Of a DNA stretch of 64,000 nucleotides, positions 1 through 60,458 are shown in pieces. The notes under the pieces were generated by a model that was not told where the DNA came from, did not search any database, and saw nothing but the letters and a program-made list of their open reading frames with translations. The translations under genes were made by a program, and so were the position numbers. Every line of letters starts with the position of its first letter. Position 1 is the first letter of the stretch. Source of the stretch: a virus; the IMG/VR virus record IMGVR_UViG_3300037474_000073. One strand, 5' to 3'.

Positions 1-1
1 C

Positions 2-2011
2 GTCGGTCCGCACCGCTGGTGGTCGTTCGCGTTCGTGATGGTCGGCTGGTTCGTCGCCGGTCTGTGGACGCTGACCCGTCTCAACGTCACCCGGCAGGAC
101 CCGCGCGCGCCCGAGCAGAAGGAGGACACGGTCCTCGAGAAGCTCGGCCTCGGCGGCTGGGGTTTCAAGGTCAAGGAGAAGGTCACCGACCCGAAGACCG
201 GCGAGCCGATCCGTACGGTCGTCGAGGCGAAGCACGCGCCGGGCGACACGTTCGACAAGCTCGCGGGTGCCGTCGGGGCGTTCGAGTCGCTGGCCGGCGC
301 ACCCGCCGGCCTGTCCGACGCGAACCCGACCGACGCGGCGAACCGGTCGGTGTTCACCATCCAGCACCGCGATGAGCTGAAGTACCGCCTGCCCTACGGT
401 CCGCTCAGTAACGTCGGCGGGTCGATTCAGGACCCGATCACGTTCTCGATCTATCAGGACGGGAACCCGGTCTGGTGCTACCTGGCGGGTCACCCCGCCG
501 GCGAGTTCCCGCCTACCGGTTACGGCTTCATGGGCATGACCCGCACCGGTAAGACCGTCGGCGAGAACGAGATGATGACCGAGGTCATCAGCCGCCGCGA
601 CGTGGTGATCCTGTATCTGAACCAGGCGAAGGGCCTGCAGGACATCCGGCCGATCATTCCCGGTGTCGAGGCGGCGATCCTCGCCGAGGACGCCTCCGAT
701 CAGGGCGTCGGCGAGTACCGGGCCGCGCTGGAGATGGTCAAGACGATCATCACCTACCGGCAGGGCACGCTCGCCCGGTTCGGCAAGTCGGCGTGGGATC
801 CGTCGTGCTTCTCGTCGCCGCCGGTCCGGCGTATGGCGGACGGCACGGTGCAGCAGATGGAGCCGATGCCCGCCCTGATCGTCCACGTCGGCGAGGCGGA
901 CTCGATCCTCGAGCGCGCGGGCGAGATCGCAACGTACGTAGCGAGCAAGGGCCTGTCGACCGGCATCATCGCGGGCTGGTCGCTACAGCGCGCCTCGGCC
1001 GAGTTCATGCCGACGGGCCTGCGGTTCAACGTTGGCGCGTGGTGGTGTTTCGGCTGTGGCGACGAGGTGTCGGCGGGATTCGCTCTGACCGACGACGTGA
1101 TCAGGGCCGGTGCGCACCCCGAATACTGGAAGCAGGAAAAGCCCGGCTATCACTATTTCGTCGGTCCCGGCACGCCTCAGGCGCGTAAGGCGAAAACCGC
1201 TCGGACGATGAGCGGTGAGAATCCCGACCAATTGCAGAACGAAATGTTGCGCCGCAACCTCGAGAATGCACCGCAGATGGCGAAGCTCGATCGCGGCTCG
1301 GCCAAGTCGACCGGCATGCCGGGCATGCCGAGCAACCGATGGGACCTGTTGGTCAAGAACACGAACCGGATCCGCAACGAGCTGCTCGACGGTCAGGCTC
1401 CCGCAACTCCGTCCGCAAACATGACCGCAAGCGACCGCAATCTGACCCCGCAAACGGAGGAGCACGTGTTCCGCAAAGAGCCCGCAACTGTGCCCACGTT
1501 CACCGCAACCGAACCTGCGGACGACGAGACCGCAGACCGGATGCAGTTCGAGGTTCAGTTCGACGACGAGGTTCGCGGTGTCCGCGAGGTTGAGGGCGTC
1601 GAGCTCTACCCCCGCAACGACGACGGCACGACGGACGAGTCGGTCGACCTGAGCCGGCCGCTTCCGGAGCCGCCGGCCGGCGACGACACGTCGTTCGAGG
1701 AGGACCGCCCGGACGCCCCGAGCCGGGAGGTGGCGATCCTCGCCCTCCACGACGTGCTTCGGAAGCTGATCGAGCGGGAGGATCTGCGCGACCCGGCCGA
1801 CCCGAACGGCAACACGGTCATCATCCAGGTCTCGGACATCTACGGTCCGTACAAGTTCAAGAGCCGCCCGTGGTTCTCCGGTGAGCTGAAGGCACTGGCC
1901 GGCGGGCAGCGCACGCCGCCGCCGAGTCTGTCCCTGGAGCGCGCCGACGACCTCGGGCTGAAGGCGGGCAAGTACCGCCTGCGGCGGATCCCGGACGGTG
2001 ACGACGAGTGA
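2..2011 (+). CDS. FtsK/SpoIIIE-family (TraB-like) dsDNA translocase, 5'-truncated by window edge
   Basis: Frame is open back to nt 2. The track Met at 35 lies inside a TM-like segment (FAFVMVGWFVAGLW). Walker A GMTRTGKT, Walker B-like ALIVHVGEAD. Stop TGA 2009-2011. Confidence 0.8.
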   Translation, partial: VGPHRWWSFAFVMVGWFVAGLWTLTRLNVTRQDPRAPEQKEDTVLEKLGLGGWGFKVKEKVTDPKTGEPIRTVVEAKHAPGDTFDKLAGAVGAFESLAGAPAGLSDANPTDAANRSVFTIQHRDELKYRLPYGPLSNVGGSIQDPITFSIYQDGNPVWCYLAGHPAGEFPPTGYGFMGMTRTGKTVGENEMMTEVISRRDVVILYLNQAKGLQDIRPIIPGVEAAILAEDASDQGVGEYRAALEMVKTIITYRQGTLARFGKSAWDPSCFSSPPVRRMADGTVQQMEPMPALIVHVGEADSILERAGEIATYVASKGLSTGIIAGWSLQRASAEFMPTGLRFNVGAWWCFGCGDEVSAGFALTDDVIRAGAHPEYWKQEKPGYHYFVGPGTPQARKAKTARTMSGENPDQLQNEMLRRNLENAPQMAKLDRGSAKSTGMPGMPSNRWDLLVKNTNRIRNELLDGQAPATPSANMTASDRNLTPQTEEHVFRKEPATVPTFTATEPADDETADRMQFEVQFDDEVRGVREVEGVELYPRNDDGTTDESVDLSRPLPEPPAGDDTSFEEDRPDAPSREVAILALHDVLRKLIEREDLRDPADPNGNTVIIQVSDIYGPYKFKSRPWFSGELKALAGGQRTPPPSLSLERADDLGLKAGKYRLRRIPDGDDE

Positions 2012-2022
2012 TCAACCCCCAT

Positions 2023-2172
2023 CTGACACCTGACGACGGAAGGACGGGTGTCAGCGCTCTGTATGTCTATAGGGGCTGACACCCCGTCCATGTATCTGAC
2101 ACCCGTCCTGACACCTGATCTGACACCTGTCTGACACCCCGCCTGACAGTAACCGTCCGTATATCTGACACC
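2023..2172 (+). repeat. Phased array of the 8-mer CTGACACC (7 perfect direct, 2 variant, 1 inverted copy)
   Basis: Direct copies start at 2023, 2076, 2096, 2108, 2120, 2131 and 2165. Variants: CTGACGAC at 2030 and CTGACAGT at 2143. Inverted GGTGTCAG at 2047-2054. Central copies are 11-12 bp apart. The array lies in the non-coding gap between stop 2011 and ATG 2197. Confidence 0.9.
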
Positions 2173-2196
2173 GACCCGAGAGGGAGACGAAAACTC

Positions 2197-2541
2197 ATGG
2201 CTGACGGCCACTCGGCGATCAAACCGCCGAAGAATTCCAGCGAGTTCTACAACCTGGTCACCGAACTGCGTAAGCACCACGAGCTGATGGCCACCCAGTG
2301 GCAGGAGGTCGCAGCCGTGCTCAAGGTGGCGCTGCCGAACGCCAAAGGCAAGAACCTGCCCGGCTGGATGCGCCCCGACCTGAAGATCGCGGCATGGATG
2401 GTGTGCCGGAAGCTCGCTCACGTCTCGGCGTGCAACATCGCCACCGCCAAGGCGCTGACCGCCACCTACATCACCTATAACGACCAGTTCGTCAACCGCA
2501 GGAGCACCGCAAGTCCCGCCGCGTTCGACATCGACAAGTAG
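2197..2541 (+). CDS. hypothetical protein (114 aa)
   Basis: ATG preceded by the CCGAGAGGGAGACGA SD-like element (2176-2190). No domain recognised. Confidence 0.6.
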   Translation: MADGHSAIKPPKNSSEFYNLVTELRKHHELMATQWQEVAAVLKVALPNAKGKNLPGWMRPDLKIAAWMVCRKLAHVSACNIATAKALTATYITYNDQFVNRRSTASPAAFDIDK

Positions 2542-2553
2542 GAGACCGCAACC

Positions 2554-2898
2554 ATGCCCGACACCGTGAACACCCGACCCCGCAAACTCTCCACCATCCG
2601 CAATGACGTCCGCATGATCTGCCACACCGCGCTCCCCGCGTCGGGCGACTTGCGGTCGATGGCGACCTTCGTCGGCGACACGCTCGGCGCGCAGTTGCAG
2701 ACGAGCGCCATGAGCGTGTCCGAGTCGGAGCGCCTTGTCGAAGAGCTCCAAGGACACCTGCGTAACCTCGCCGAGACCCTCGACGCGACCGCTGCCGCCG
2801 GACAGCGGGTCATTGATGCCCTCGACAACGTCCGCACCTCGTACAACAAACACCTTCAGCGATCCGGTAATCAGTCCGGCGACGTGGTGCTGCACTGA
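2554..2898 (+). CDS. hypothetical protein (114 aa), coiled-coil-like C-half
   Basis: ATG 12 nt after the previous stop, in an operon with neighbours. No domain recognised. Confidence 0.6.
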   Translation: MPDTVNTRPRKLSTIRNDVRMICHTALPASGDLRSMATFVGDTLGAQLQTSAMSVSESERLVEELQGHLRNLAETLDATAAAGQRVIDALDNVRTSYNKHLQRSGNQSGDVVLH

Positions 2899-3215
2899 TG
2901 GGTGCGCCGAAGAGCCTGCGGGAATTGCGCGAGGCGATTCCTGTTCGCCGCCGTTCGGCGAGCGGAATATTTGACGAATACGCCGCTCTCGTCTCCGTCA
3001 TTCCGCCTCGGATCAGAAAGGCACTCGTCGATCGCGGCGTCAGCCCGAGTCGGGCCGGCGTGCTGAGTAACGACATCGAGGCGGCACTCAAGGAGATCGT
3101 CCGCGGATACGACACCGTGAGCACGTTCCTCGGCGCGCTCGAGGGCGCGATCGACGAGGCACAGCACGCCGCCGTCACGGCCGGCACGTTCCAAGAGCAC
3201 TTCATCATCGACTAG
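2898..3215 (+). CDS. hypothetical protein (105 aa), paralog A
   Basis: ATG overlaps the previous stop (TGATG). Shares the RGVS..RA..LS..I pattern and the C-terminal F(I/V)ID with 3224-3538. Confidence 0.6.
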   Translation: MGAPKSLRELREAIPVRRRSASGIFDEYAALVSVIPPRIRKALVDRGVSPSRAGVLSNDIEAALKEIVRGYDTVSTFLGALEGAIDEAQHAAVTAGTFQEHFIID

Positions 3216-3223
3216 GGGCAGGC

Positions 3224-3538
3224 ATGGCGACAGTGAAGCTCAGCGACCTTAGGCAGGAAGCGGCCGACCGGCGTACGAACACGGTACGAGCGGCCGACCG
3301 CTACTCCCGTCTGCGCGTCCCCCTCGGTGCGGGTCTGCTGGATCTCCTGCGGGCACGTGGCGTCTCGGACGATCGGGCGCTGGAACTGTCCTCGGGGATT
3401 CAGGACCGGGTCGCTGAATTGGACCGTGTGTACTCTGAGGCAGCAAAGAACCTGGCCGCTCTGATCAGCTACCTTGATCGGGTGGAAACCGAACTACGCA
3501 AGGCGGGCCGGGACACCGAGAAGTTCGTCATCGACTAG
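3224..3538 (+). CDS. hypothetical protein (104 aa), paralog B
   Basis: Same length and motif pattern as 2898-3215. Ends ..EKFVID. Confidence 0.6.
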   Translation: MATVKLSDLRQEAADRRTNTVRAADRYSRLRVPLGAGLLDLLRARGVSDDRALELSSGIQDRVAELDRVYSEAAKNLAALISYLDRVETELRKAGRDTEKFVID

Positions 3539-3943
3539 GTGGGGGTCATGGGACGGATCAGCGGCGACGAGTGGCACTCGCTGGCACGGCGGGAGGCGGC
3601 GCGCGAGTTCGGGAAGCGCCATTACGGCTCGTACGTCGTCAGCCAGTTCGCGCCGCACATCGCGCTGATCGTGCTGGCCGGTGCGGCGGGATTCGGCGCC
3701 TGGTGGCTCTACTCGCGCATTCACGCCGCCCTGTCCCGCCCCTCCGTCACGACCGAGGTCGCACAGGTCCACTCGGGCGTGCCGGTCTGGATCTGGTTCA
3801 CCGGCGCCTTGCTCGCGGTCGGCACGGTCGTCGTCTACCGCCCCGGTCGCGTCCCGTCGATGCCGGGCGTCGCGATTGCGAAGGTCGCGATCGTGCTCGT
3901 GCTGTGGCTCGCCTGGGTCGGATTCCTGCTCGCTCAGATCTGA
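3539..3943 (+). CDS. membrane protein, about 3 TM helices
   Basis: GTG directly after the TAG of the previous gene (alternative ATG at 3548). Hydrophobic segments IALIVLAGAAGFGAWWLY, VWIWFTGALLAVGTVVVY and IVLVLWLAWVGFLLA. Confidence 0.6.
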   Translation: MGVMGRISGDEWHSLARREAAREFGKRHYGSYVVSQFAPHIALIVLAGAAGFGAWWLYSRIHAALSRPSVTTEVAQVHSGVPVWIWFTGALLAVGTVVVYRPGRVPSMPGVAIAKVAIVLVLWLAWVGFLLAQI

Positions 3944-3978
3944 TCTACCGGGCCTTATGGGCCAACCGATAAGAAGAC

Positions 3979-4009
3979 GGCAGCCCCGACCATCCAGGTC
4001 GGGGCTGCC
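3979..4009 (+). terminator. stem-loop after the 2197-3943 operon
   Basis: GGCAGCCCCGACC-atcca-GGTCGGGGCTGCC, a 13-bp perfect stem. No clear U-tract. Confidence 0.5.
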
Positions 4010-4254
4010 GCGCGTTCGGGGTCAGTGCCGTACGGCCTGAGCTTGACCGACGACGGTCGTGAGGATGAACGTCACCGAGAGAGCGGCGACGGTGAGACGG
4101 TCCGCAGGGTCGATGGGACGCGGTGCCGTGGTCCGATGTAGCCGTGACGCGATTCCGACATTCCGACAAGATACGGCACCCGCCCGTCAGAGTCACCGGT
4201 TGCCGCGTGCCGTTGCTCTACTCTGGTGGGCGTACACCGAGAGAGGGAGACGAG

Positions 4255-4710
4255 ATGACTCAGAACGAGGTGACCGCGCGGTACGTGCCTGAAGTGCGCA
4301 CGATCGTCGGCACCGACCTGGAACTGACCCAGGCGCTACGGCGCCAGAGCGCACTCGGCCGGCTGCTCACGCCGCCCGGCGAAATCAAGCCGCGGCGCGT
4401 CGAGGACGGTCGCTGGGCGATCACGGTCCGGCTGGCCCGCCCGCTGACCGCGCAGGAGGTTCGCGACCTGACTCCGACGTGGTGGAAACGCCACCGCCGG
4501 CACGTCGGTTACGCCGCCCTCGCGCTCACCCTGCTCGCCGTCATCGGCGGCATCGTGACGCTGTTGATCAGCCTGTTCACCGCGGTCGCCGACAACGGCT
4601 CGTACCTGCTCGCTGGCGCGATCGGCCTCAGCGCCGTCTTGTTCGCCGCAGTGAAGAAAGGTCACCCCTGTACCGGTCTGCACTGCGCGGGATGCAAGGA
4701 CAAGCACTGA
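4255..4710 (+). CDS. membrane protein (151 aa), two TM helices, Cys-rich C-terminus
   Basis: Trimmed from track ORF 4123. ATG 4255 follows CCGAGAGAGGGAGACGAG. TM segments YAALALTLLAVIGGIVTLLISLF and LLAGAIGLSAVLFAAV. Ends CTGLHCAGCKDKH. Confidence 0.55.
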   Translation: MTQNEVTARYVPEVRTIVGTDLELTQALRRQSALGRLLTPPGEIKPRRVEDGRWAITVRLARPLTAQEVRDLTPTWWKRHRRHVGYAALALTLLAVIGGIVTLLISLFTAVADNGSYLLAGAIGLSAVLFAAVKKGHPCTGLHCAGCKDKH

Positions 4711-4721
4711 GTGCACAACGA

Positions 4722-4755
4722 AACGGCCCGCCACCTCATCGAGGGGCGGGCCGTT
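4722..4755. terminator. bidirectional stem-loop between convergent genes
   Basis: AACGGCCCGCC-12 nt-GGCGGGCCGTT, an 11-bp stem, between stop 4710 (+) and stop 4776 (-). The stem sequence recurs at 34528-34566. Confidence 0.65.
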
Positions 4756-4775
4756 CTCCTTGACTGGCGTCAGAT

Positions 4776-5051
4776 CTACCTTAGCGAATCGGATGCGACC
4801 TCGTCCTCGGGCGCGAGCGTGACGGACGGGACGGCACTGGCGCCCTTGCCGCCGATCTTCGAGGTGATGAGGTTCTTGAGCAGCGAGAACGCCGTGACGA
4901 GCCCGGCCGCGCTCCACAGCTTCCAGTTGTCCAGCTTGAGAACGTCCTGCCAGCCGACCGCGTCGGAGGTGGCGAGACCGAGCACGGATACGACGAACGT
5001 CGCGATCACGCGTTCGGCGATGTCCTTGGCTACGGGGAACTTGCTTGCCAT
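4776..5051 (-). CDS. holin-like membrane protein (r1t-holin-like pattern)
   Basis: 91 aa, AAGGAGA RBS. Pattern AERVIATFVVSVLGL...W..W...AAGLVTAFSLLKNL resembles the Phage_r1t_holin family. Last gene of the lysis cassette. Confidence 0.55.
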   Translation of the reverse strand: MASKFPVAKDIAERVIATFVVSVLGLATSDAVGWQDVLKLDNWKLWSAAGLVTAFSLLKNLITSKIGGKGASAVPSVTLAPEDEVASDSLR

Positions 5052-5066
5052 GATCTGTCTCCTTAA

Positions 5067-5669
5067 CTACGCGCCGTCCACGGCGGCAGGCGCGGGCTGA
5101 ATGACCCGAAGGTCCAGGGCGTAGTAAAGATCTCCCGGCGTCACGTCGCCGACCCAGCGCCCATCATCGAACAGGTTGTACGGGACCGGCTGACCGGCGT
5201 ACCCCTTCAGCGAGAACAGCCCGCGGTCGACGAGCTGCGAGCACATCAGGTTGCCTCGCCGGCCGATGAACGCCTTGGCGTGCGGCACCGGAATGTGGAA
5301 CTGGATGCAGGCGAGCACCGGGTACGAGAGCAGCGAGTATCCGATCGGTCCGCCGTGCGGTCCGGCGGTCATGAACATGGTCGCGACCCGCGGCACGTCG
5401 GCGCGCTGCTCGTCGGTGAGCGGCACCGAGGCGTAGGCGAAACCGGGAGCGAGACGCGGACGCAACGGCTGGTACTCGGCGCCGTGCGGCATGGCCTGGA
5501 TGATCAGACCGTCGGGGTAGTCCGGATGGTCGACGGGATGCACGACCCAGAACGCGTGGTCGAACCGGCACCCGTCCTTGAGCAACGCCTGACCCCAGTA
5601 CGGGACCGCGCCACCCGCGCCGGCGATGGTGGAGAACCCGACGTCCCCGGATTGCGGATTGATCGTCAT
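5067..5669 (-). CDS. permuted papain-like (NlpC/P60 superfamily, YiiX/C92-like) peptidase, probable endolysin peptidase module
   Basis: GDVGFSTI...FDHAFWVV followed by ..NLMCSQLVD (His before Cys arrangement). Lies in the lysis cassette. Confidence 0.6.
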   Translation of the reverse strand: MTINPQSGDVGFSTIAGAGGAVPYWGQALLKDGCRFDHAFWVVHPVDHPDYPDGLIIQAMPHGAEYQPLRPRLAPGFAYASVPLTDEQRADVPRVATMFMTAGPHGGPIGYSLLSYPVLACIQFHIPVPHAKAFIGRRGNLMCSQLVDRGLFSLKGYAGQPVPYNLFDDGRWVGDVTPGDLYYALDLRVIQPAPAAVDGA

Positions 5670-5687
5670 CTCTCTATTCTCTCTCAG

Positions 5688-5722
5688 CCGGCCGGTGTGG
5701 GTACGAACCCCGTACCGGCCGG
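5688..5722. other. GC-rich stem-loop inside the lysis cassette
   Basis: CCGGCCGGT...ACCGGCCGG outer stem with an inner GTACG/CGTAC pairing, between stop 5727 and start 5669. No U-tract. Confidence 0.35.
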
Positions 5723-5726
5723 TCCA

Positions 5727-6218
5727 TCAGGTCGGGCGCCGTAGTTGCAGCCGCGCCCGCGTGAGCTCGGGTGGTCCGCCATTGACGTACTGGTGGCGCA
5801 CCTCGGCGTCGCTGATCAGCGGATCGTTCGCCGCAGTGATCACGCGCTCCGTCCAGCTCACCATGCCGTCCATCAGCGTGATCATCGACTGGAGCCGTTC
5901 CTCGGCGGCGTCGGCGCGGCGGGTCGCCGCCTCTGCTGCTCGGCCGGCAGCGGCAGCGGAGGTCTCGGCGGCCTTGGCCTGCCGGGTCGCCTCACCCGCC
6001 TCGGTCTTGGCGGATCGCGCTTCGTCCATCGCCTGTTTGGTCCAGTTCAGTTGATCCTCGGACAACGAGATCCGCTGCTCTCCGGCCTGCGCCTTGCGGC
6101 TGACCCGATAGTTCAATATCCCGACCAACGCCGTGAGTATCGCGCTGACCGCGCCGACCGCCCAGATCGTGGTCGTGCTGGGGTTTGTCGGCGTTGAGGC
6201 GGCGAGCTCCGCGATCAC
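5727..6218 (-). CDS. N-terminally membrane-anchored coiled-coil protein (lysis cassette)
   Basis: Trimmed from track start 6293 to the GTG that overlaps the upstream stop (GTGA). TM segment IWAVGAVSAILTALVGIL, then an Ala/Glu/Arg-rich helix. Confidence 0.5.
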   Translation of the reverse strand: MIAELAASTPTNPSTTTIWAVGAVSAILTALVGILNYRVSRKAQAGEQRISLSEDQLNWTKQAMDEARSAKTEAGEATRQAKAAETSAAAAGRAAEAATRRADAAEERLQSMITLMDGMVSWTERVITAANDPLISDAEVRHQYVNGGPPELTRARLQLRRPT

Positions 6219-6673
6219 TGGTCGGTTCCCATCGGCCCCAGATCGTGAGTGATCTCCTCGGTCGACGTCGGCCGCCGCGGAGGCTCTGACCACCCGCTGA
6301 TGATGCCGATCATGGTAGCGAACACGAGCCAGACAATGCCCGATACCCAGCCCCGATCAACACCCCCGAACATCCAGGACGTGATCCCCACGAGTCCCCA
6401 GATGACCTTTTGGCAGATCGCCAGCGAGTAGCCGAGGGCATCGTGGCGTAGGAACGCCTGAAAGATCAGGAAGATACCCACGACGATCCATCCCCCGCCC
6501 CACACCCAGAGCGGGAGGTAGTGCTGGCGCCACACGGTCGCCGCGGATGTCGCCTGCTCGGTGGTCGGCGAGCTGATCGACCATCCGAAGATCATGTCGA
6601 ACACGCCGAGGATGAGCAGGATCGACCCGCGGCGACCGAAGCGGGACCGGGACAGAAACCGGAGGTTGAACAT
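6215..6673 (-). CDS. 4-TM membrane protein, holin-like
   Basis: 152 aa with four hydrophobic segments, immediately downstream of the glycosidase-type endolysin gene. Confidence 0.55.
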   Translation of the reverse strand: MFNLRFLSRSRFGRRGSILLILGVFDMIFGWSISSPTTEQATSAATVWRQHYLPLWVWGGGWIVVGIFLIFQAFLRHDALGYSLAICQKVIWGLVGITSWMFGGVDRGWVSGIVWLVFATMIGIISGWSEPPRRPTSTEEITHDLGPMGTDQ

Positions 6674-6679
6674 CAGCCC

Positions 6680-7618
6680 TTAGGTGTTCTTCAGTCCGCC
6701 GAATACTGCGCGGATCACTTCTTCTACATCCTGCTTTGAGGCGCCGGCTGGGATCTGGATCAGCGGGCCGAGCAGTGGGGCGAGCTTCTCTGCTACCTCC
6801 TGCGCACTGGCGCCGCTTTGCTGAACAACCAGCGCGGTCAGTCCGTTGACCGCGGTCATCAACGGACCGGCCGACTCGGAGAAGTCGATCGTGGCGTTGA
6901 GGTTGTTCCGGAACACCCGAGCGGCGGCCACGTCATCGGCTGTGGTGTCATTGATGACGGTCGCCACATCGGCGAACAGATCCTTGATCGCTTCCTTGAT
7001 GATCGGCTTGTCTGCGTTGGTCAGTGCCACGTCATCCTCCTGGTATCCCCATTGGCCGTAATCTCCGACCAGCGCGCGGGTAAGATCGCAATCTCCGCCA
7101 CCGATCGTGACGCCGTTCTTGTACTGGTACAGATCGTTGACCGGGTGCACGCGGTCACCCGACCATGCGTAGGTCTGCCAGTACCACCGGGCCAGTCCGG
7201 TCACCGCGCAATGCTCGATCACGTCATAGGAGCCGTATACCCCGACACGCTCCACGCCGATCACCTGTGCGCTCGCACGTAGCGCTGCATCGATGCCCGG
7301 CCAGTCCTTGCTCCCGGCATCGAAGTCCACCGAGAAGTAGATCGGCCGGTTCGCCGGCATGCCGAGCGCTCGGAAGGCGGACTCTGCAGATTGCGCCCAG
7401 GACCGTCCGGCCGCAGCGCCGGTGTAGCCGCCGGCCGTACCCTCTGCGTTTGCCACCACATCCAGTCCGGCTCCACGTAGCGCAGCAAGCTCACCGGCAT
7501 GCAGGTGCTTACCATCGGAACCGGGACCGCCATAGCGGACAGCGAACTTCTTTCCCGCGGCGGCCAGAGAGGCAGGCGAGGGACGCGAGAACGAGTAGTC
7601 CACGCCTTCAGTGATCAT
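6680..7618 (-). CDS. endolysin, glycoside-hydrolase-like module (DUF1906 / Rv2525c-like, GH25-related)
   Basis: N-terminus GVDYSFSRPSPASLAAAGKKFAVRYGG...LHAGELAALRGAGLDVVANAEG fits the DUF1906 pattern. First gene after the tail genes. Confidence 0.7.
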   Translation of the reverse strand: MITEGVDYSFSRPSPASLAAAGKKFAVRYGGPGSDGKHLHAGELAALRGAGLDVVANAEGTAGGYTGAAAGRSWAQSAESAFRALGMPANRPIYFSVDFDAGSKDWPGIDAALRASAQVIGVERVGVYGSYDVIEHCAVTGLARWYWQTYAWSGDRVHPVNDLYQYKNGVTIGGGDCDLTRALVGDYGQWGYQEDDVALTNADKPIIKEAIKDLFADVATVINDTTADDVAAARVFRNNLNATIDFSESAGPLMTAVNGLTALVVQQSGASAQEVAEKLAPLLGPLIQIPAGASKQDVEEVIRAVFGGLKNT

Positions 7619-7633
7619 TCAAGTTCACCCCCC

Positions 7634-8728
7634 TTATCTCCGGGCGACCGGCGTCGTATCGAACGGCGCGCACACGTCAGCGGTCTTCGCGGCCATCTGT
7701 GCGACCTGGGCGATCTGGAGCAGGTTCGTGTTTCCGGCGAGGTACGTCTCGACGTTCGTGAAGTACGGATCCGCCATCACGCACCAGCGGTTGGCGGGTC
7801 CGACCGCGACACCGGCGATCTCCGACGGCAGCCACGCGAGGCGCATGTAGACCAGGGCGTCAGTCGGGCGCGGCGGGGTGAAGGTCGGCGTGTGCATCAT
7901 GACGTAGGCGGCGTTCGAGGCGAGCTGCGGGGCGAGCTGATACATGCCCCACACCGAGTACGACGTGTGATCGGGATCGGTGTCGGCGGTGCGCAGTTCG
8001 GAGTACGGCCAGTCCCGTGTCGCCGGCCGGTACGCGTAGACCTCGCGCCGGGTCACGTCCTCGGCGAGCTGAGCGATGCCCGCGGTGCCGACGCCCGCGG
8101 CGTTCGCGTCGAGCAGGAACGCGGCGACCCCGGCGTTCGAGTTGTGCACGCAGGTGCCGGGCGCGCGGTCGCCGGTCGCGTTCGAGTAGGCGACGCAGGT
8201 GCCCTGCGCGGTGTTGATCTGCGGGAAGTTCTTCAGCATCACCACGATGGCCCGGAGCTCGGTGAACGAGACCACCCCGTGCTTGTAGCCCTCAAGGAAC
8301 GTCGCGCCGACGTGACCGGCGAGCGTCACCGAATAGGTCGTGGTGATCGGGTTGACCGTGCCGTCACCGAGCTGGTCGTATGCGCACGGCAGACCCCAGC
8401 CGCCGTCCGGGTTCTTCATCGACCGGATCTTGTTCAGGTACGCCGTCGTGGTCGGATCATCCCAGCCGCGCAGCCGGCCGGCAGCCTCGCCCGCCCAGGA
8501 ATAGGTCGACGCCCGCTGCGGTGCCGCGGTGACCGTGCCGCATGGCTGCGTGGAACCGGGGCCTCCGATCGCAGTGTGATCGACGGCCTCGAACGTGGCG
8601 AGGGCCTGGACGGCGATGGCTCGCCAGCGCTCGGAACGGGTCGGTACCGGGTCGGCGGACGCTGACGGAGCGAACAAAAAAGCCGCAGTGATGACCGCGG
8701 CACACAGGATCGACATCTGTCGTCTCAT
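7634..8728 (-). CDS. secreted protein with Sec signal peptide, possible alpha/alpha-toroid fold
   Basis: Trimmed from track start 9217 (the upstream part is off-frame and R-rich). ATG overlaps the upstream stop (ATGA). Signal MRRQMSILCAAVITAAFLFAPSASA/DP. Contains NPDGGWGLP. Confidence 0.6.
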   Translation of the reverse strand: MRRQMSILCAAVITAAFLFAPSASADPVPTRSERWRAIAVQALATFEAVDHTAIGGPGSTQPCGTVTAAPQRASTYSWAGEAAGRLRGWDDPTTTAYLNKIRSMKNPDGGWGLPCAYDQLGDGTVNPITTTYSVTLAGHVGATFLEGYKHGVVSFTELRAIVVMLKNFPQINTAQGTCVAYSNATGDRAPGTCVHNSNAGVAAFLLDANAAGVGTAGIAQLAEDVTRREVYAYRPATRDWPYSELRTADTDPDHTSYSVWGMYQLAPQLASNAAYVMMHTPTFTPPRPTDALVYMRLAWLPSEIAGVAVGPANRWCVMADPYFTNVETYLAGNTNLLQIAQVAQMAAKTADVCAPFDTTPVARR

Positions 8729-9273
8729 AGCGGCAACACTATCAATGTGCGGTTCAAGGCGGTGAGCGCGCCGCCGGTGGGCGTCGTGTACTTCGCAGTG
8801 AAGGTGTTCGATCCAGCGGTGATGGTCGGCAGGTCGATGCCGAACGATCGGTGCACCGTGCCGGCCGTTTCGGACATCAGCCGGATCGCGTTGGCGATCG
8901 CCGCTGCCTGCGTCGTGGCGCCGGACACCGCGTAGGACATGTAGCCACCGCAGCCGACCGAGGCGTTCGACATGTAGGCGCCGTACATCACGATCGCCTT
9001 GGTGCCGGTGACCAGCGGCCCGACGACCGGTCCTACGGTGGCGAAGTCGGCGAACACGCCGGTCGACGGCGTGAACGACTCGTTGGTCGCGACGTTCGCG
9101 ATCGTCGGGGTCCGGGCGGCGATCGCGTTGGCGCCGGTGCTGATGAACATCTGGCCGGCGGTCGTCGCGAGCGCAGGCGCGGTCGTGAGCAGGTTGTCCC
9201 GCACGGACGCATTCCACTGCGCGGCGGTCAGCGGCGTGTTTGCTACCGCCGTGAGCGGCGTCGTCCAGGCCAT
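8725..9273 (-). CDS. minor tail protein
   Basis: 182 aa. N-terminus W..PLTAV.NTPLTAAQWNASVRDNL is typical of actinophage minor tail/fibre proteins. Position after the large minor tail gene. Confidence 0.55.
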   Translation of the reverse strand: MAWTTPLTAVANTPLTAAQWNASVRDNLLTTAPALATTAGQMFISTGANAIAARTPTIANVATNESFTPSTGVFADFATVGPVVGPLVTGTKAIVMYGAYMSNASVGCGGYMSYAVSGATTQAAAIANAIRLMSETAGTVHRSFGIDLPTITAGSNTFTAKYTTPTGGALTALNRTLIVLPL

Positions 9274-9274
9274 G

Positions 9275-9736
9275 TCAGCTTCCGATCTCGGGGACCCGGC
9301 GCTGCGGGTCGAACTGGCCGGCGAGCCGGTTGATGTATCCGCCGATGACGTAATCGCCCTGCCCGACGATGAGCGGACCGCCCTGCTCGAGCGCCTCGTC
9401 GGGCGGCATGATCCCGTGCAGGATGTTCTCCATGAGCAGCCCGTCGAGCGTCTCGCCCGGCTCCCAGTTGCGGGTCTTCTCGTCGGGGCGCATGGACAGG
9501 ATCGCCTCGATCGCAGCGGGGTCGGGCGGCCAGGCGATCGCCTCGGTGACCTGCCCGCAGTCCCAGCAGACCATCGACCAGTCGCCCCACTCGATCGAGT
9601 AGCGCACCATCGTGCCGTGCTCGTCGCACAGGTGTACGCCGACGACCAGCCCCGATGTGCAGTGCGCGCAGTCGACGATCCACCGCGACCAGTTCATCCG
9701 GGTCGCCCCGCCGTGACGCAGCACGATATCGCTCAC
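9275..9736 (-). CDS. Cys-rich (zinc-ribbon-like) protein in the tail gene block
   Basis: Trimmed to the GTG that overlaps the upstream stop (GTGA). Contains CAHC...C...CWDC. Confidence 0.5.
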   Translation of the reverse strand: MSDIVLRHGGATRMNWSRWIVDCAHCTSGLVVGVHLCDEHGTMVRYSIEWGDWSMVCWDCGQVTEAIAWPPDPAAIEAILSMRPDEKTRNWEPGETLDGLLMENILHGIMPPDEALEQGGPLIVGQGDYVIGGYINRLAGQFDPQRRVPEIGS

Positions 9737-11325
9737 GTCGCAAAACCCCCTTGATCGAACATCTGTGTCGCGACCGCGGTGTCCAGCGTGAACATCTGGG
9801 TCGGGTTGCTCAGCGCCCCGATGCCGAAGAACCCGTCGTTGAATCCCTTGCCGGCGACGTCGAAGGTGAAAACGTTCGACGGTTGTGCCGGGTCGACCAT
9901 CTGGCACCCGATGGTCAGCGTGTGGATCAGCCCGTTCTTGCGGATCAGGTGCGCGATGTTCTCGATCCAGAAATCGGCGCTGAGTCCCATCTCATCGTTG
10001 ATGATCGTGATCCGGTCGCTGATCCGGCGGGCGAGGATTCCGGTCAGGTGGGCAGCGTTGACGTTGGCGACCGAGAACGTGACCGCCGGCCGGGGTTGGG
10101 CGTAGACCGCGACGATGCGCTGGGCGATCGCCCGCGCGTCGTACTGGTTCGCCCACGGCGCCGTACCGTCCCACTTCTTGCGGGTGAACGTGAGCACGCT
10201 CGCCGAGTCCTCTTCGATGACCTGGATCGTCCGGGCGATCGGTAGCGGCGTGGCGAGCAGCTTGATCCCCTGGATGATCGCGCCGCCCGCGCCGGCCGTG
10301 ATGGTCAGGAAGCACGATGCTCCGGACGTGCGCGACAGCGTGATGGTCACGCTGCCGGTGACGAGCATGTACTCGCCGACCGCGGCGCCGTCCGTTCCGG
10401 TGAACGTGATCGGCGTCGGCACGAGAGCGTTGATGAACGGGTCGGAGCCCTGCACGACGTAGGTGCGCACCTCGTTCGCGCCGAGGTTGATCTGCTCGTC
10501 GGTGCTCCACACGACCTCGACGTCGGTCGGCTGCCGCTGGTTGACCGTGAGCGTGACGCTGTTGATGATGTTCTTCAGCCCGTAGTCGTAGTTGAACGAG
10601 TCCTTCAGGATCTTCATGTCGCCGGCGGCCACGACCCCGGCGGGCTTCCGCTGGGTGTAGAGCCCCTGGCTGGTCTGGCTTGCGGCGCGGGTCAGCCGGT
10701 GCAGCCGGTCGCGGAACACGAACGTTCCGCCGTCGACATAGGCGATGGCGGGTGGTCCCTCGCTGTTGACCAGGTTCGTGATCGCGGTCGCGGCGTCGTT
10801 GCCCTCCTCCCACCACCAGTCGACGGCGGTCGCACCGGCGTCGAGGTCACGCCCGCCGGTCCAGCCGATCGCGTCGAGGATGACGCCGATCAGGTAGCCC
10901 GTGCGCTGCCCCGAGTAGACAGGCGTCGACAGTTGCTCGCTGCCGGGCGTGCCCCATCCGTCGTTGGCCGAGATGGCAACGGGCTTGCTGGACGCGGTCG
11001 TGTCGAATCCGATGTCGCCGATCGGCCCGCTGAACAGCGTCCGGGTCGCAGCGGTCGCGGGGTCGGTCACGAGGTACTGCGCGAGCGTGCCCGGTAGCAC
11101 CTTGCCGTAGATCGGCGATGCGGTGTTCTCGGGGCTGAGCACGCGGTCGATGTTGAGTAGGACAAAATCCATCTTTCCGGTGCCCGCGTCAGAGGTCGCC
11201 CGCGGTTCGTTGCGCCCGAGCGTGATGGAGATGTCGCCGGTCAGCCGTTTGGTGACGTTCTCGTTGGTGTTGGCGAACGACCCGTTCCGCGACCAGTCGC
11301 AGTCCATCTCCCGGCCGGCGACCAT
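9733..11325 (-). CDS. minor tail protein (530 aa)
   Basis: Trimmed from track start 12150 (that extension is off-frame inside the tape measure gene). ATG overlaps the TMP stop (TGATG). Directly follows the tape measure gene. Confidence 0.7.
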   Translation of the reverse strand: MVAGREMDCDWSRNGSFANTNENVTKRLTGDISITLGRNEPRATSDAGTGKMDFVLLNIDRVLSPENTASPIYGKVLPGTLAQYLVTDPATAATRTLFSGPIGDIGFDTTASSKPVAISANDGWGTPGSEQLSTPVYSGQRTGYLIGVILDAIGWTGGRDLDAGATAVDWWWEEGNDAATAITNLVNSEGPPAIAYVDGGTFVFRDRLHRLTRAASQTSQGLYTQRKPAGVVAAGDMKILKDSFNYDYGLKNIINSVTLTVNQRQPTDVEVVWSTDEQINLGANEVRTYVVQGSDPFINALVPTPITFTGTDGAAVGEYMLVTGSVTITLSRTSGASCFLTITAGAGGAIIQGIKLLATPLPIARTIQVIEEDSASVLTFTRKKWDGTAPWANQYDARAIAQRIVAVYAQPRPAVTFSVANVNAAHLTGILARRISDRITIINDEMGLSADFWIENIAHLIRKNGLIHTLTIGCQMVDPAQPSNVFTFDVAGKGFNDGFFGIGALSNPTQMFTLDTAVATQMFDQGGFAT

Positions 11326-14300
11326 CAGGGGATCTTTCTGTCGTTCTTGAGCCGCTTGATGCTGGTCGCGAGCCACCGGTCCATCTCGGCCTGTGAGCCG
11401 ATCACGCCCTCGTTGTGCACATGGACGTGGAGGTCGCCACCACGCCCGCCCCGGCCGTCGTCGACGTATTCGGTGCGCCCGCTCATGTTGGCACCGAGCG
11501 TGCCTGACGGCCACGCCCCGCCGTTGTCGAACAGGCGTACGGGCCGACCGAACAGACCGCCCTGTGCGAGCTTCGCCGCGCCGACCTGGGCGAACCCGCC
11601 GACTCGGCGGGCGCCACCGCCGACGATGACACCGCGGGAACCGCGGGACTCGAACGGCAGGCTGCCGATCTGACCGGCCATGTGACCGACGGACGCCGAC
11701 GCGGGCGCCTGACCCGGATGCGACCAGCCCGCGATCAACGGACCGTTGCGCTTGCCGTTGGTGAAGTACGAGCCGGCCGACTCGGTGCTGAACGTGTGGC
11801 TGTAGGGGTTGCGCCCCTTGAGGATGTTGTACGCCGCCGACACGATGCCCGAGCAGTCGTAGCCTCCCGGTCCCGCCGACGCCCACACGTACGGCTTGCC
11901 GTTCTGCGCGTGAATGAATCGGGTCGCGTCGCCGACCTTGCCCTTGCCGCCTGCGCCGCCGGTGATGAACTTGACGGCGCCGTTCAGGAACCGCTTGCCC
12001 GCGCCGACCAGGAAGTCTTTCACGAGCCCAACGCCGGGGATGTGGTTGATCAGCGACTCGAACGGCTTCTTGATCGTGGCGATCGGGTCGCTGACCGCTG
12101 ACCAGACGTCCTTGACCCAGCCGACGAGCCCGCCGTCCTTGAACGCCCATCCCTCGCTGCCGTCGCCGGGGTAGTCGGTGAGCGGTCGCCCGATCCGGCT
12201 GCCGATCAGGTTCTTACCGCCCTTCATCCCGTCGTTGATCCAGCGCAGCAACGGCAGCGCGCGGGCGGTGTCCTGCCGGTTGACGATGAACTCGCCGCCC
12301 ATGAGCTTGACCGCGCCGACGCCGGGGATGGTCGCCGGTGCGAGCCGGTTGTCCTCGGTGCTGCCCGCGCCCGAGATCTTCCCGCCGGCCGCGTATCCCG
12401 CGATCTCGCCGCCCTTGGCGAAGCCTGGAATCAGGGCGACCCGGTCCTTGATGCCGACGACGCTCGCCGCCTTGTTGAGCCCGCCGATGAACGGGTTGAT
12501 CACGTGGTTGACCACGAATGCGACAGGGATCCGCGCGGCGTCCTGGACGCCCTGCCACGCCTTGCGGATCGCGGCGACGCCCGAGCGGAAGGCGTTCGGC
12601 AGGGTCTTGGTCACGAAGTCGGCGACCGCCGAGAACACCGGCCGGATCTTGCCGGTCCAGATCGCCGAGAACCCGGCGGCGAGGGCGTCCCAGACCACGC
12701 GTACTGCGGCGAACGTCGGGCGTACGCGGGCGTTGTACCAGGCTGAGATGTAGCCACCGATGGCCGTGAAGATCGCACCGAAGAACGCGCGCAGCGAGAC
12801 GAGCGACGCGACCACCGGACCGAGCACGTACGTGCGGAACAGCCCGAAGATCCTCAGCGCCACGCCCCACCAGAACTGGATCGCCGCCGTGATGCCCCGG
12901 AACGCGACCTCGAAACCGGCGCGCAGCGCGGCGATGATCGGCTGGAGCGTGAAAGCGATGATCTTATACAGCCCGACGAAGATCACTCGGACGGCGAGCC
13001 ACCAGATCTCGACGATCTTCTGGATCGCGCCGAACACCGGCTGGAACACGCCGTGCCACAGGAACAGCGCCGCGCCCTTGACGATGTTGAATTCGAGCAC
13101 GAGCGCCGAGATGACCCCGCGCACCGCGACGACCGCGACGCTGACCGCAGCCTGAATGCCGCGCCAGACCGGCTCGATCACGTTGTGCCAGAGGAACAGC
13201 GCGGCACCCTCGACGGCGTGATAACCCGCGAGCAGACCGGGCCAGACCGTCTTGGTGAAGAAGTCGATCGTCGCCGACACCGCGACCTTGATGCCGGTCC
13301 ACGCCCCCTGCACGATGTTGCGGAACGTCTCCGAGTGCCGGTAGGCGAGGATCACGCCGGCGACCAGCGCGGTCAGGGCGACGATGACCAGCCCGATCGG
13401 GTTGGCGATCAGCGTGGCGTTGAGCAACACCTGGGCGGCTGCCCAGCCCTTCGTGATGCCCGTGACGATGCGGATGCCCTGGATGTACTTGATGACGCCG
13501 CCGGCCGCCGTGACCGCGAGCATCAGCGAGTTGATCCGCAGCGCGATCGTCACGGCCGTGATCGCGAGTGCCCAGTCCCGGAACACGCCGAAGTTGTCGC
13601 GGATGAACCCGAACACCTGTGCGACGCGCGCAAAGAAGATCGGTAGCTGTGTGGCGAGGCTGTTCAGGAACGAGGTCAGTGGTCCTTTGGCGAGCGCGTA
13701 GATCGCGATGGCCTCGTTCTCGAACTGGCTCTTGACGTTGTCGATCGCGCCGCCGAGTCCTTTGTTCTTCGCCGCAGCGAAGTCGGCCGCCGCGCCTTGC
13801 TGCAGCACCGCCTTGCGTTGTGCGTCGTAGACCGGCAGTCCGCCCTTGAGTAGGGCGATGACCGAGCGGCTCGCGTCGGCGCCGAAGATCTGGGTGATCG
13901 CGAAGTCGCGTTCCTCGTCGCTCATGCCCTTCGTGCCGGCCGCCGTCAGCGCGATGATGTCGCGCAGCCCGCGCATCTTGCCGCTCGAGGTGAACGCGAT
14001 GTCGCCGAGGTCGCCCAGGTTCTTATTGTGCTTGGCGACCGCGGTCAGCGCCTCGGTCTGCACCTTCGTCGACCCGTGCAGAATCTCGTTCTGCTGTTTG
14101 AGCGAGACGTTCGCGCCGGCCGCCTTGAACGCGAGCAGCTCCATCTCGCCTTTGGCGTTCTTGGTCGGACCGGTGAGCTGCAGCAACATCTGCTTGAGCG
14201 AGGTACCGGCGTCGGAGCCCTTGATGCCGTTGTTGCCGAGCACGGCGATGGCGGTGTTGAGCTCGGTGATCGCTTCGGTCGAACCGACGGCGGGCGCCTG

Positions 14301-15065
14301 GAATCCGGAGAACACCGACGCCGCTTGCTGGAAGGCCAGCGACACGTCGGTGATCTCCACCGACGACGAGTTCGCGGCGGCCGCGAGCTGGTCGACGACC
14401 TTGGTCGTGTCGCTGGCCTTGATCCCGAACGCGTTCACCGCGTTGGCCGCGATCGTCGCTGCGTCCGCCTCGCTGATGCCCGCGACCCGAGCGAGCTGTA
14501 GCGTGCCCTGCGCGGCGTCCATGGCTTGCTGGACCGTGAACCCGGCCTTGGCGAGCTCGGTCATCGCCGCCGCCGCGCCGGCCGCCGAGACGCCGGGCAG
14601 CTTGACGTCGGCGCCGAGCGCGCGGGCCTTCGCCGCGACCGCGGTCATCTGGTCGCCGGTCGCCTTGCTCACGAACTTGAATATGTTGAGGTTGTCCTCG
14701 TAGGCGATGCCGATCTTCCCGATCGACGCCACCGCGGCGCCGAGACCGATCGGGACGAACACGCCCGCGGCAAGCTTCAGGTTGCTGCCGATGATGCTCT
14801 TGAGTCCGCTCGAGCCCTTACCGAACCCGGTCGCGAACTGACTGCCCGCGCCCTGCCCTGCCTTCGCGCCGGCGGCCGTTCCGTCGCTGACGAACTTGCC
14901 GTGAACGTCACGGAGCTTGCCGTTGATGTCGCGCTTGTAGCCCTTGCCGAACCCGTCGGCGGCGCCCTTGCCCGCCTCCTCTCCCGCCTGGTTACCGGCC
15001 TTGACGAAGTCCTGCCGGTTGACCTCGGGACGCAGACGCACGAAAGCGGAGGCGAGCGCCACCAT
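11325..15065 (-). CDS. tape measure protein (1246 aa) with C-terminal NlpC/P60-like motif
   Basis: Longest ORF, located after the chaperone genes. Central hydrophobic repeats (GAALFLWH.V..PV....IQ occurs twice). GKPYVWASAGPGGYDCSG ... VGHMAG near nt 11680-11900. Confidence 0.9.
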   Translation of the reverse strand: MVALASAFVRLRPEVNRQDFVKAGNQAGEEAGKGAADGFGKGYKRDINGKLRDVHGKFVSDGTAAGAKAGQGAGSQFATGFGKGSSGLKSIIGSNLKLAAGVFVPIGLGAAVASIGKIGIAYEDNLNIFKFVSKATGDQMTAVAAKARALGADVKLPGVSAAGAAAAMTELAKAGFTVQQAMDAAQGTLQLARVAGISEADAATIAANAVNAFGIKASDTTKVVDQLAAAANSSSVEITDVSLAFQQAASVFSGFQAPAVGSTEAITELNTAIAVLGNNGIKGSDAGTSLKQMLLQLTGPTKNAKGEMELLAFKAAGANVSLKQQNEILHGSTKVQTEALTAVAKHNKNLGDLGDIAFTSSGKMRGLRDIIALTAAGTKGMSDEERDFAITQIFGADASRSVIALLKGGLPVYDAQRKAVLQQGAAADFAAAKNKGLGGAIDNVKSQFENEAIAIYALAKGPLTSFLNSLATQLPIFFARVAQVFGFIRDNFGVFRDWALAITAVTIALRINSLMLAVTAAGGVIKYIQGIRIVTGITKGWAAAQVLLNATLIANPIGLVIVALTALVAGVILAYRHSETFRNIVQGAWTGIKVAVSATIDFFTKTVWPGLLAGYHAVEGAALFLWHNVIEPVWRGIQAAVSVAVVAVRGVISALVLEFNIVKGAALFLWHGVFQPVFGAIQKIVEIWWLAVRVIFVGLYKIIAFTLQPIIAALRAGFEVAFRGITAAIQFWWGVALRIFGLFRTYVLGPVVASLVSLRAFFGAIFTAIGGYISAWYNARVRPTFAAVRVVWDALAAGFSAIWTGKIRPVFSAVADFVTKTLPNAFRSGVAAIRKAWQGVQDAARIPVAFVVNHVINPFIGGLNKAASVVGIKDRVALIPGFAKGGEIAGYAAGGKISGAGSTEDNRLAPATIPGVGAVKLMGGEFIVNRQDTARALPLLRWINDGMKGGKNLIGSRIGRPLTDYPGDGSEGWAFKDGGLVGWVKDVWSAVSDPIATIKKPFESLINHIPGVGLVKDFLVGAGKRFLNGAVKFITGGAGGKGKVGDATRFIHAQNGKPYVWASAGPGGYDCSGIVSAAYNILKGRNPYSHTFSTESAGSYFTNGKRNGPLIAGWSHPGQAPASASVGHMAGQIGSLPFESRGSRGVIVGGGARRVGGFAQVGAAKLAQGGLFGRPVRLFDNGGAWPSGTLGANMSGRTEYVDDGRGGRGGDLHVHVHNEGVIGSQAEMDRWLATSIKRLKNDRKIP

Positions 15066-25331: not shown

Positions 25332-25354
25332 GGTGACCCCCTTACGATGCGGAT

Positions 25355-25750
25355 ATGGAGACGAGCGGAAACGACGACTACCCGCCGATGACCGCGCCGC
25401 CGTGGGGGCGGCACGATCACGACGTGATGGCGGACCTGATGCGCGCGGTACGGGTGCTCGGCATGGCACCGGCGCCACCGTTGCCCGACGTGCGGGCCGG
25501 CAGCGATCAGGTGTTCAGGGATCTCGCCAGCGAGTCGGGGATCCAGACCAGCACCGGCGGCGCGGAAACGCTCGCCATGCTCGGCATTCCGGTGCGGGTC
25601 ACGACCGAGCTACCCGAGAACGTGGTCATCATCGGCGACCGCGTGCTGATGCGCCGACAGCGTGGCGACTGGATCACGTTTCCGCTGAGCGTGCTGGATT
25701 ACGATGGCAATGCCACTGCTGAGCACGTGCGTGCATTCCGCGCACCGTAG
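25355..25750 (+). CDS. hypothetical protein (131 aa), antisense to the late operon
   Basis: Only plus-strand ORF inside the structural block with a protein-like translation (..GAETLAMLGIPVRVTTELPENVVIIGDRVLMRRQRGDWITFPL..). Start uncertain. Confidence 0.5.
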   Translation: METSGNDDYPPMTAPPWGRHDHDVMADLMRAVRVLGMAPAPPLPDVRAGSDQVFRDLASESGIQTSTGGAETLAMLGIPVRVTTELPENVVIIGDRVLMRRQRGDWITFPLSVLDYDGNATAEHVRAFRAP

Positions 25751-38611: not shown

Positions 38612-38708
38612 CTCGTCTCCCTCGAGTCGGTGGCTCCGTAACCCGCTCCGATCGTGCTCACCGCTGACACCGAGCAAGCACGAGCGGAACGGGAGGCGCA
38701 ACCACCGA

Positions 38709-59476: not shown

Positions 59477-59553
59477 ACTGTACCCCCACGGGGCCTCACG
59501 TGCAAGCGGCTTGTGACAAGCTACTTGCACAATCGGGTCGGCGAGTGCATGCT
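59477..59553. promoter_or_regulatory. divergent promoter/operator region
   Basis: Leftward: GTGGGGGTACAGT (59477-59489 on plus) with -35 TTGCAC (59500-59505) at 17 bp. Two palindromes: GCAAGCGGCTTG 59502-59513 and ACAAGCTACTTGC 59516-59528. Rightward: -35 TTGCAC 59525-59530, 17 bp, -10 CATGCT 59548-59553. Confidence 0.6.
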
Positions 59554-59559
59554 GAGGAC

Positions 59560-60194: not shown

Positions 60195-60200
60195 AGGGGC

Positions 60201-60449: not shown

Positions 60450-60458
60450 GAGGTTTAC

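Follow-up and report, generated by a model that had tools for sequence, protein, structure and literature searches.

We studied a 64,000-nucleotide stretch of viral DNA, the IMG/VR record IMGVR_UViG_3300037474_000073 (hereafter the window), whose left end holds most of a traB-like gene for a putative DNA translocase, a non-coding gap with an array of short repeats, and five small genes (Table 1). The first 122 codons of the traB-like gene lie beyond the window start, across a circular junction (see below). Its stop codon (TGA, 2009-2011) is separated from the next ATG (2197, with GGGAG ahead of it) by a gap of 185 bp (2012-2196), and the first repeat begins 12 nt past the stop. Perfect copies of the octamer CTGACACC start on the positive strand at positions 2023, 2076, 2096, 2108, 2120, 2131 and 2165, a single perfect inverted copy occupies 2047-2054 on the negative strand, and two variants with two mismatches each start at 2030 (CTGACGAC) and 2143 (CTGACAGT). 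From 2076 on, and with the variant at 2143 included, the positive-strand copies are spaced by 20, 12, 12, 11, 12 and 22 bp. An earlier note on this DNA, made from the letters alone, had reported the gap, the repeat positions, the variants and the inverted copy, and all were as claimed when the sequence was re-read. The region has the makeup of a clt, the locus at which the TraB proteins of conjugative plasmids act: clustered direct repeats with an inverted repeat just past the 3' end of a tra gene.

Counting CTGACACC and its strand skew, as that note had proposed, gave 10 perfect copies in the window, eight of them within 2023-2172, against 2.60 +/- 1.62 in 100 dinucleotide-preserving shuffles (largest count 7; none reached 10). 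The two copies outside the cluster, at 38664 and 61792, are both on the positive strand; their number is that expected by chance and they show neither a strand nor a positional pattern. The earlier note had seen only the first of them (38664-38671). The hexamer CTGACA occurred 17 times in the reconstructed circle of 67,392 bp, with 9 of the 17 inside the gap. A further unit of related sequence, CTGACG at 2201-2206, falls in codons 2-4 of the downstream gene (ATGGCTGACGGC), and the same is seen in the related loci L006 and L009 (GTGGCTGACGAG). No Rfam family matched the gap, and its RNA folding z-score (-1.15) was unremarkable.

Table 1. Features of the translocase-array region and main virion genes in the window (positions in nucleotides; residue numbers refer to the full-length translocase)
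Feature	Position	Strand	Description
traB-like gene, 3' 2,010 nt	2..2011	+	residues 123-791 of the 791-aa protein P0001 (669 aa in the window)
Walker A, GMTRTGKT	533..556	+	residues 300-307; G300, R303, G305 and K306 invariant in 28 homologues
Walker B region, IVHVGEAD	878..901	+	residues 415-422; E420 and D422 invariant in 28 homologues
SLQR motif	980-991	+	S449 and Q451 invariant; L450 and R452 nearly so (at least 90%)
Winged-helix-type domain, predicted clt-recognition domain	1724..1987	+	residues 697-784
Predicted recognition helix a3 and N-cap, SRPWFSGELKALA	1862..1900	+	residues 743-755; R744 invariant in the family
Proximal inverted pair	2023..2054		CTGACACC 2023-2030 (+), overlapping CTGACGAC 2030-2037 (+), CTGACACC 2047-2054 (-)
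10-bp inverted repeat, GGGTGTCAGC / GCTGACACCC	2044-2053 / 2075-2084		flanks the CTATAG palindrome
Palindrome CTATAG, then GGG	2067..2075		equivalents at the same place in all loci
Direct-repeat array	2076..2172	+	six CTGACACC and variant CTGACAGT at 2143
Five small genes	2197-2541, 2554-2898, 2898-3215, 3224-3538, 3539-3943	+	GC content at third codon positions 0.79-0.92
Tape measure	11325-15065	-	PHROG/Pfam
Major capsid protein	20358-21284	-	PHROG/Pfam
Protease	22645-24036	-	PHROG/Pfam
Portal	24033-25478	-	PHROG/Pfam
Large terminase	26769-28403	-	PHROG/Pfam

The traB orthologues and their flanks were gathered from IMG/VR, JGI and ENA metagenomes, Logan assemblies and one isolate genome; the scans of metagenome and genome collections contributed few loci. 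An array was present 3' of the orthologous gene in all 13 related loci (TraB identity 34-57%), as the earlier note would have it if array and gene belong together. The elements follow one another in a shared order after the stop codon: an inverted CTGACA/TGTCAG pair (just past the stop in most loci), a palindrome, and four to eight direct CTGAC(A/G) units, the last of which lies in most loci at the ribosome-binding site of the next gene, either just before it or between it and the start codon. The palindrome was found in the middle of every clt-like region (L002-L016, L017 4723-4728, L018 approximately 22444-22450), with the variants CTATAG, CCTATAGG, CCCTATAGGG, CCTTAAGG and CCTAGAG, and as CCTAGG and CCTTAGG in the plasmids pWTY27 and pCQ3, respectively. 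Spacing between units in 15 loci had its mode at 11 bp, with 31 intervals of 10-14 bp, eight of 7 bp and eight of 20-24 bp. The array was present whatever gene followed, since the downstream gene is unrelated in L003, in L006/L009, in pWTY27 and in pCQ3. In L016 (WUUC01186209.1, region 12017-12420) an extra open reading frame (ORF) separates the traB stop from the array, which lies 400 nt further on; this array is of the CTGACG type, with three units just 6 bp apart. The locus of Rhizomonospora bruguierae (L010, NZ_BBQH01000056.1) carries, besides the array after traB, four units directly upstream of the traB start (CTGACAGC, CTGACACC, CTGACAGG and CTGACGAT; 9930-9995), which hints at autoregulation through the same motif. 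Pfam searches on the flanks of L010 and L007 were uninformative.

The translocase matched the NCBIfam model of plasmid TraB (NF041214 plasmid_TraB; E 3.8e-71) over window residues 11-633, that is, up to the recognition helix, and tblastn with it retrieved 49 actinomycete plasmids at 25-32% identity, most of the matches being annotated traB; against annotated TraB proteins the identity was 27-32%, and about 30% for those of Streptomyces plasmids. No match was obtained with tblastn of TraB against 50,697 phage records, with megablast of window positions 1-8000 against GenBank phages and PLSDB, or with a PDB sequence search using either the whole translocase or the profile of its C-terminus. A full-length AlphaFold2 model built from 28 homologues (predicted local distance difference test score, pLDDT, 80.7) showed four long N-terminal helices (28-154), a large alpha/beta domain, a disordered linker and a small C-terminal domain. 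In a search of PDB structures the top 15 matches were FtsK motor domains (E 2.7e-13 to 2.4e-11, with template modelling scores of about 0.61-0.68 of the target), the best being 6t8g_C (E 2.7e-13), and these were followed by the coupling protein TcpA and by EssC/EccC. The model thus combines the membrane anchor and FtsK-type motor expected of a TraB with Walker A and B motifs, and GMTRTGKT is the sole canonical P-loop found in any real ORF of the genome. We predict from sequence and model that the protein is a membrane-anchored double-stranded DNA translocase of the FtsK/SpoIIIE type; by its matches it is a clear homologue of TraB, yet no TraB equivalog.

The earlier note had pointed to the C-terminus as the place to look for a winged helix. 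Modelled alone with AlphaFold2, the C-terminal 104 residues gave the topology a1-b1-a2-a3-b2-b3 (pLDDT 83.3), which is the winged-helix order, and hhalign matched the C-termini of the phage family to those of six plasmid TraB proteins from a1 through the wing (96.8% probability, E 2.2e-10). Topology and alignment thus both support a winged-helix C-terminus like that of TraB. The first-ranked Foldseek matches of this model, none of them significant, were winged-helix DNA-binding domains, among them those of HSF1, FoxA, IRF4 and MarR type, and a Pfam scan of all 27 C-terminal domains returned only noise. At the start of the predicted recognition helix a3 the phage protein and pWTY27 TraB have SRPW(V/F)S in common (SRPWVSARLK in pWTY27). 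The form SRPWVS is found in pWTY27 and in the Streptomyces longwoodensis and Amycolatopsis plasmids, all with CTGACA-type repeats after traB, and pCQ3 TraB has SRSWIS, again with CTGACA-type repeats; TraB of pJV1 and pSN22 starts the helix with DRSWVS and has the repeat CCGCACA[CG]C. At the level of families, therefore, the start of a3 covaries with the type of repeat, a comparison of the kind that the earlier note had proposed. Inside the phage family both the helix start and the CTGACA core are nearly invariant and drift is confined to repeat positions 6-8, so that covariation is visible solely against pJV1 and pSN22.

The closest validated counterpart belongs to pWTY27, a plasmid of Streptomyces sp. 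Y27 that was among the tblastn matches of the phage TraB; its clt comprises 16 bp of the tra gene and 159 bp downstream with four direct TGACACC (Wang et al. 2012, PMC3583192). Its Tra protein (TraA in that paper, annotated TraB in RefSeq) binds clt in electrophoretic mobility shift assays and protects two segments from DNase I; deletions in clt reduced transfer 10- to 1000-fold, and the region is required in cis (PMC3583192). When we placed the coordinates of the paper on the sequence, the first footprint covered CTGACACC and three more TGACACC, the second covered an inverted GGTGTCA and CTGACAGC, and the unprotected stretch between them held the CCTAGG palindrome. The palindrome of the phage loci may accordingly mark where another factor binds or where the DNA bends. 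We liken the phage array to this clt because the two share the core, the kinds of element and the position: the TGACACC core is identical, the first copy is located at, or overlaps, the 3' end of tra, direct and inverted copies accompany a small palindrome, and the length is about 175-185 bp in both. The Tra protein is in addition homologous to the phage TraB (29% identity, E 7e-35), with the same SRPW(V/F)S. The two differ in that pWTY27 is a 14-kb theta plasmid and not a 67-kb phage genome, and in that its four perfect copies are arranged in the order direct, palindrome, inverted, opposite to the phage order; the phage has seven direct and one inverted perfect copies in a tighter phasing of 11-12 bp, and TraA and GntR partners were not detected by its traB. 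A gene annotated 'phage major capsid protein' lies less than 1 kb downstream of the pWTY27 clt (L017 5510-6970; NC_013667.2 10642-12102), a further indication of exchange between TraB plasmids and phages.

Other known systems share part of this design. TraB of pSVH1 has, as summarized in PMC4447253 and PMC3583192, a membrane anchor, an FtsK-like motor and, at its C-terminus, a winged helix-turn-helix whose helix a3 reads 8-bp direct TraB recognition sequence (TRS) repeats just 3' of traB; the C-terminal domain was described as the clt-recognition domain (Vogelmann et al. 2011, cited there). The C-terminal domains of the plasmid TraB proteins are homologous to that of the phage protein by hhalign, and pJV1 and pSN22 stand apart in their repeat and in their DRSW helix start; PMC3583192 cites CCGCACA[CG]C as essential for clt function in pJV1. 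FtsK and SpoIIIE are likewise hexameric FtsK-type motors, and their C-terminal winged helix reads an 8-bp motif, KOPS or SRS. These motifs occur throughout the replicon with a strand skew toward dif, whereas eight of the ten phage copies are gathered in a single 150-bp cluster and the remaining two match the chance expectation. The KOPS-like part of the earlier proposal was therefore dropped: directional segregation of the KOPS type fails for want of a dispersed, strand-skewed set of motifs. The phage cassette also departs from the kil-kor type of transfer module, in which a GntR-type TraR/KorA and TraA stand next to traB. The gene upstream of the phage traB encodes an 85-aa HTH_17 protein, and the precomputed Pfam column of the L001 gene table gives no family to any other gene in L001 1-9816; traA was found in pJV1, pSN22, pWTY27 and pCQ3, with an annotated GntR regulator near traA-traB in pJV1, pSN22 and pCQ3.

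The earlier note had placed this module in a tailed phage, and the genome confirmed the phage context of the traB-array cassette. A Logan contig leads from window positions 62628-64000 through 3,392 further bases to window positions 1-12541, closing a circle of about 67.4 kb and placing traB inside the phage element. Terminase, portal, protease, capsid, tape measure, tail and lysis genes lie on the same replicon as traB. The negative strand also carries genes for Erf, RecE-like and RNase T-like exonucleases, a primase/polymerase, a beta clamp and two methyltransferases. The DNA polymerase III beta clamp gene is at 49837-51192 and the methyltransferase genes at 51015-52694 (C5) and 52694-54301 (N6/N4), the family matches of the latter two being split into distant N- and C-terminal blocks. 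Residues 721-1193 of the tape measure match the endolysin-annotated phrog_971 (E 4.9e-77), and this internal segment of the protein probably forms a cell-wall hydrolase domain. A block of about 12 kb on the positive strand contains traB (window 59500-64000, L001 1374-4765 and window 1-4710) and is divergent from the phage genes of the negative strand.

Six IMG/VR genomes of 65.6-70.6 kb, from six samples, agree in the position of traB, with the recombination genes on one side and the tail end on the other; in one of them the gene is split across the contig ends. Scans with the capsid protein and with one neighbouring gene found exactly these six among IMG/VR contigs of at least 65 kb, and all six carry traB. 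Two further proteins, p347 (60653-61696) and p379 (61773-62912), have no family match and accompany traB in all six; a scan with the single p379 sequence found nothing, and a profile was needed. The capsid proteins of the six genomes are 78-82% identical and their TraB proteins 39-57%, so that by sequence comparison TraB diverges much faster than the major capsid protein. No deposited phage has a terminase more than 38% identical to this one, and no close cultured phage was found. These genomes represent a lineage of uncultured tailed phages of about 65-70 kb, with presumed hosts among high-GC actinobacteria, in which the cassette is a conserved core module.

Downstream of the array, the five small genes had no Pfam, PHROG or NCBIfam family, and of the five just the first is conserved, and that in some relatives only. 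Genes three and four are paralogous to each other (31% identity, both ending in F(I/V)ID) and the fifth encodes a predicted membrane protein with about three hydrophobic segments. The small proteins showed no similarity to the products of genes 3' of traB in six plasmids; they may be Spd-like accessory genes.

The 13 of 13 loci, the pWTY27 core, the homology of TraB and the circular tailed-phage genome together make it quite probable that the array is a clt-type recognition locus of the adjacent TraB-like pump, as the earlier note had proposed. In the mechanism that we infer, with its TraB binding, translocation and biological role, the array would be the place where the pump of the preceding gene is loaded. 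TraB would be a membrane-anchored hexameric motor of the FtsK type whose C-terminal winged helices read CTGACA(C/G)(C/G), arranged as an inverted pair ahead of six or seven direct copies that recur about once per helical turn, and this helical phasing would bring several domains of one or more rings onto the same face of the DNA. The loaded motor would pump the circular double-stranded phage genome through the membrane or a cross-wall into a neighbouring hyphal compartment or cell. Because the cassette is a conserved core module of a tailed-phage family, this family probably has a second, virion-independent route of spread or segregation. The complete explanation, from loading site through genome pumping to a second route of spread, we consider likely. 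Bound TraB may, in addition, hold down expression of the operon that follows, given that the final copy of the array coincides with the ribosome-binding site of its first gene.

A different account would make the array primarily an operator for the 2197-3943 operon, bound by the HTH_17 protein, by another phage regulator or by TraB acting as a repressor, with no role in translocation. It draws on the position of the last copy before or between the ribosome-binding site and the next start codon in most loci, on the four copies ahead of traB in L010, on the gap having to contain any promoter of the downstream operon, and on the conserved mid-region palindrome, which is typical of dimeric regulators. 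The array, however, goes with traB whatever lies beside it: conservation of the downstream gene is lacking in the loci and plasmids named above, and the upstream gene is traA in plasmids and HTH_17 in phages while the motif is unchanged. A scan of 1900-4300 found no sigma-70-type promoter, and in pWTY27 it is Tra itself that footprints TGACACC, in a region needed in cis for transfer (PMC3583192). We therefore think it unlikely that the site serves regulation alone, whether for the operon or for the HTH_17 protein. The earlier note had offered the operator as its alternative; as the sole role it is unlikely, because the array tracks traB, and as a second role it is plausible, given the last copy at the ribosome-binding site.

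Direct repeats phased at about 11 bp beside an inverted repeat also resemble iterons, and the array might be a set of iterons or a centromere through which a plasmid-like prophage replicates or is partitioned; an initiator would bind it, or TraB in the service of segregation at sporulation septa and not of transfer between cells. FtsK-family pumps clear DNA from closing septa, and an alternative maintenance device would be sensible where no ParA-type Walker A and no integrase appear in the ORFs examined. No ParA-type Walker A was found in any ORF of the genome, and a scan of about 45 ORFs, in a genome where many small ORFs match no family, turned up neither ParB nor an integrase. Such a site is still quite improbable, as no initiator gene is adjacent, the motif is common to rolling-circle and theta plasmids of different replication types, and pWTY27 keeps its RepA-bound iterons (GTGGGAAC/TTCCCAC) at a locus separate from the TGACACC clt (PMC3583192). 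Chance, low complexity or an assembly artefact, for which the high G+C of the genome might speak, has next to no probability in view of the shuffles (0 of 100 reaching the observed count), the identical region in an independent Logan assembly and homologous arrays in 13 independent loci.

Several observations weigh against a clt-type loading site. The last repeat at the ribosome-binding site and the four L010 copies upstream of traB point to a regulatory role, which could be the main one. The translocase scored 240 bits with NF041214, far short of the 800 set as equivalog cut-off, and has no Pfam match, FtsK_SpoIIIE included. The Foldseek matches of the C-terminal model were not significant (best E 0.13), and FtsK gamma was not retrieved with it. 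Inside the phage family there is no clean residue-to-base covariation, the repeat of L002 being CTGACGC although the helix is almost unchanged. TraR and TraA partners were not detected next to the phage traB in the Pfam column of the L001 gene table, and a mycelial host, needed for TraB-type transfer, is assumed.

A tailed phage with a conjugation-type module is not unprecedented. The 85.5-kb plasmid pCQ3 of Streptomyces sp. W9 (NC_013449.1) carries, with its traB, genes for a major capsid protein, HK97 gp10, tail proteins and a terminase-like ORF, and after traB come direct and inverted repeats of the CTGACA type with a CCTTAGG palindrome. It differs in having been deposited as a plasmid, in having traA and a GntR regulator, and in its looser array; its TraB is 27-31% identical to the phage TraB, and the tblastn high-scoring segment pair over the terminase-like ORF is 27% identical. 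We found no paper calling pCQ3 a phage. The plasmid-phage pZL12 (phage ZL12, GQ919031) needs its major tra gene for conjugal transfer (Zhong et al. 2010, as cited in PMC3583192 and PMC7157519). Its FtsK/SpoIIIE-like gene pZL12.71c adjoins structural genes, as in our phage, and it has ParAB and an integrase, neither of which was found in our phage among the ORFs examined. We rejected pZL12 Tra as a direct homologue, as BLASTP matched the P-loop only (E 0.01) and no array follows the gene. The novelty supposed in the earlier note is thus limited by pZL12 and pCQ3; what is new is an uncultured phage lineage with an ordinary cassette of the TraB/clt kind. In the searchable literature, whose coverage does not extend to subscription journals, we found no account of a phage lineage that has a TraB-clt cassette among its conserved modules. 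The surprise is moderate, because the array is a textbook clt and phage-plasmids bearing tra genes are known.

Annotation of actinobacteriophages routinely turns up FtsK/SpoIIIE-like genes for which no role is known (e.g. PMC13587820), and a role in spreading phage DNA in the mycelium has been suggested for the SpdB2 homologues of phages phiC31 and VWB (Thoma et al. 2015, PMC4447253). The phage family described here makes that idea concrete and testable: the pump is accompanied by a cognate site that can be recognised, a homologous Tra is known to bind the core of that site, and the cassette is kept in all complete genomes of the lineage while traB changes much faster than the gene for the capsid. 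We can entertain, tentatively and as somewhat less probable than its opposite, that these are 'conjugative phages', which keep a complete TraB-clt double-stranded DNA pump as a core function and move their genome, replicating or resident, between hyphal compartments or cells without virions; if true, this would be the bacterial counterpart of the movement proteins of plant viruses. The pump may also be the element's sole segregation device, as no ParAB or integrase was detected. If the cassette is functional, the phages would have two routes of transmission, virions and a conjugation-like transfer of double-stranded DNA, which would bear on phage spread in filamentous hosts, on gene flow among plasmids, actinomycete integrative and conjugative elements and phages, and on the mobilisation of chromosomal clt-like sites.

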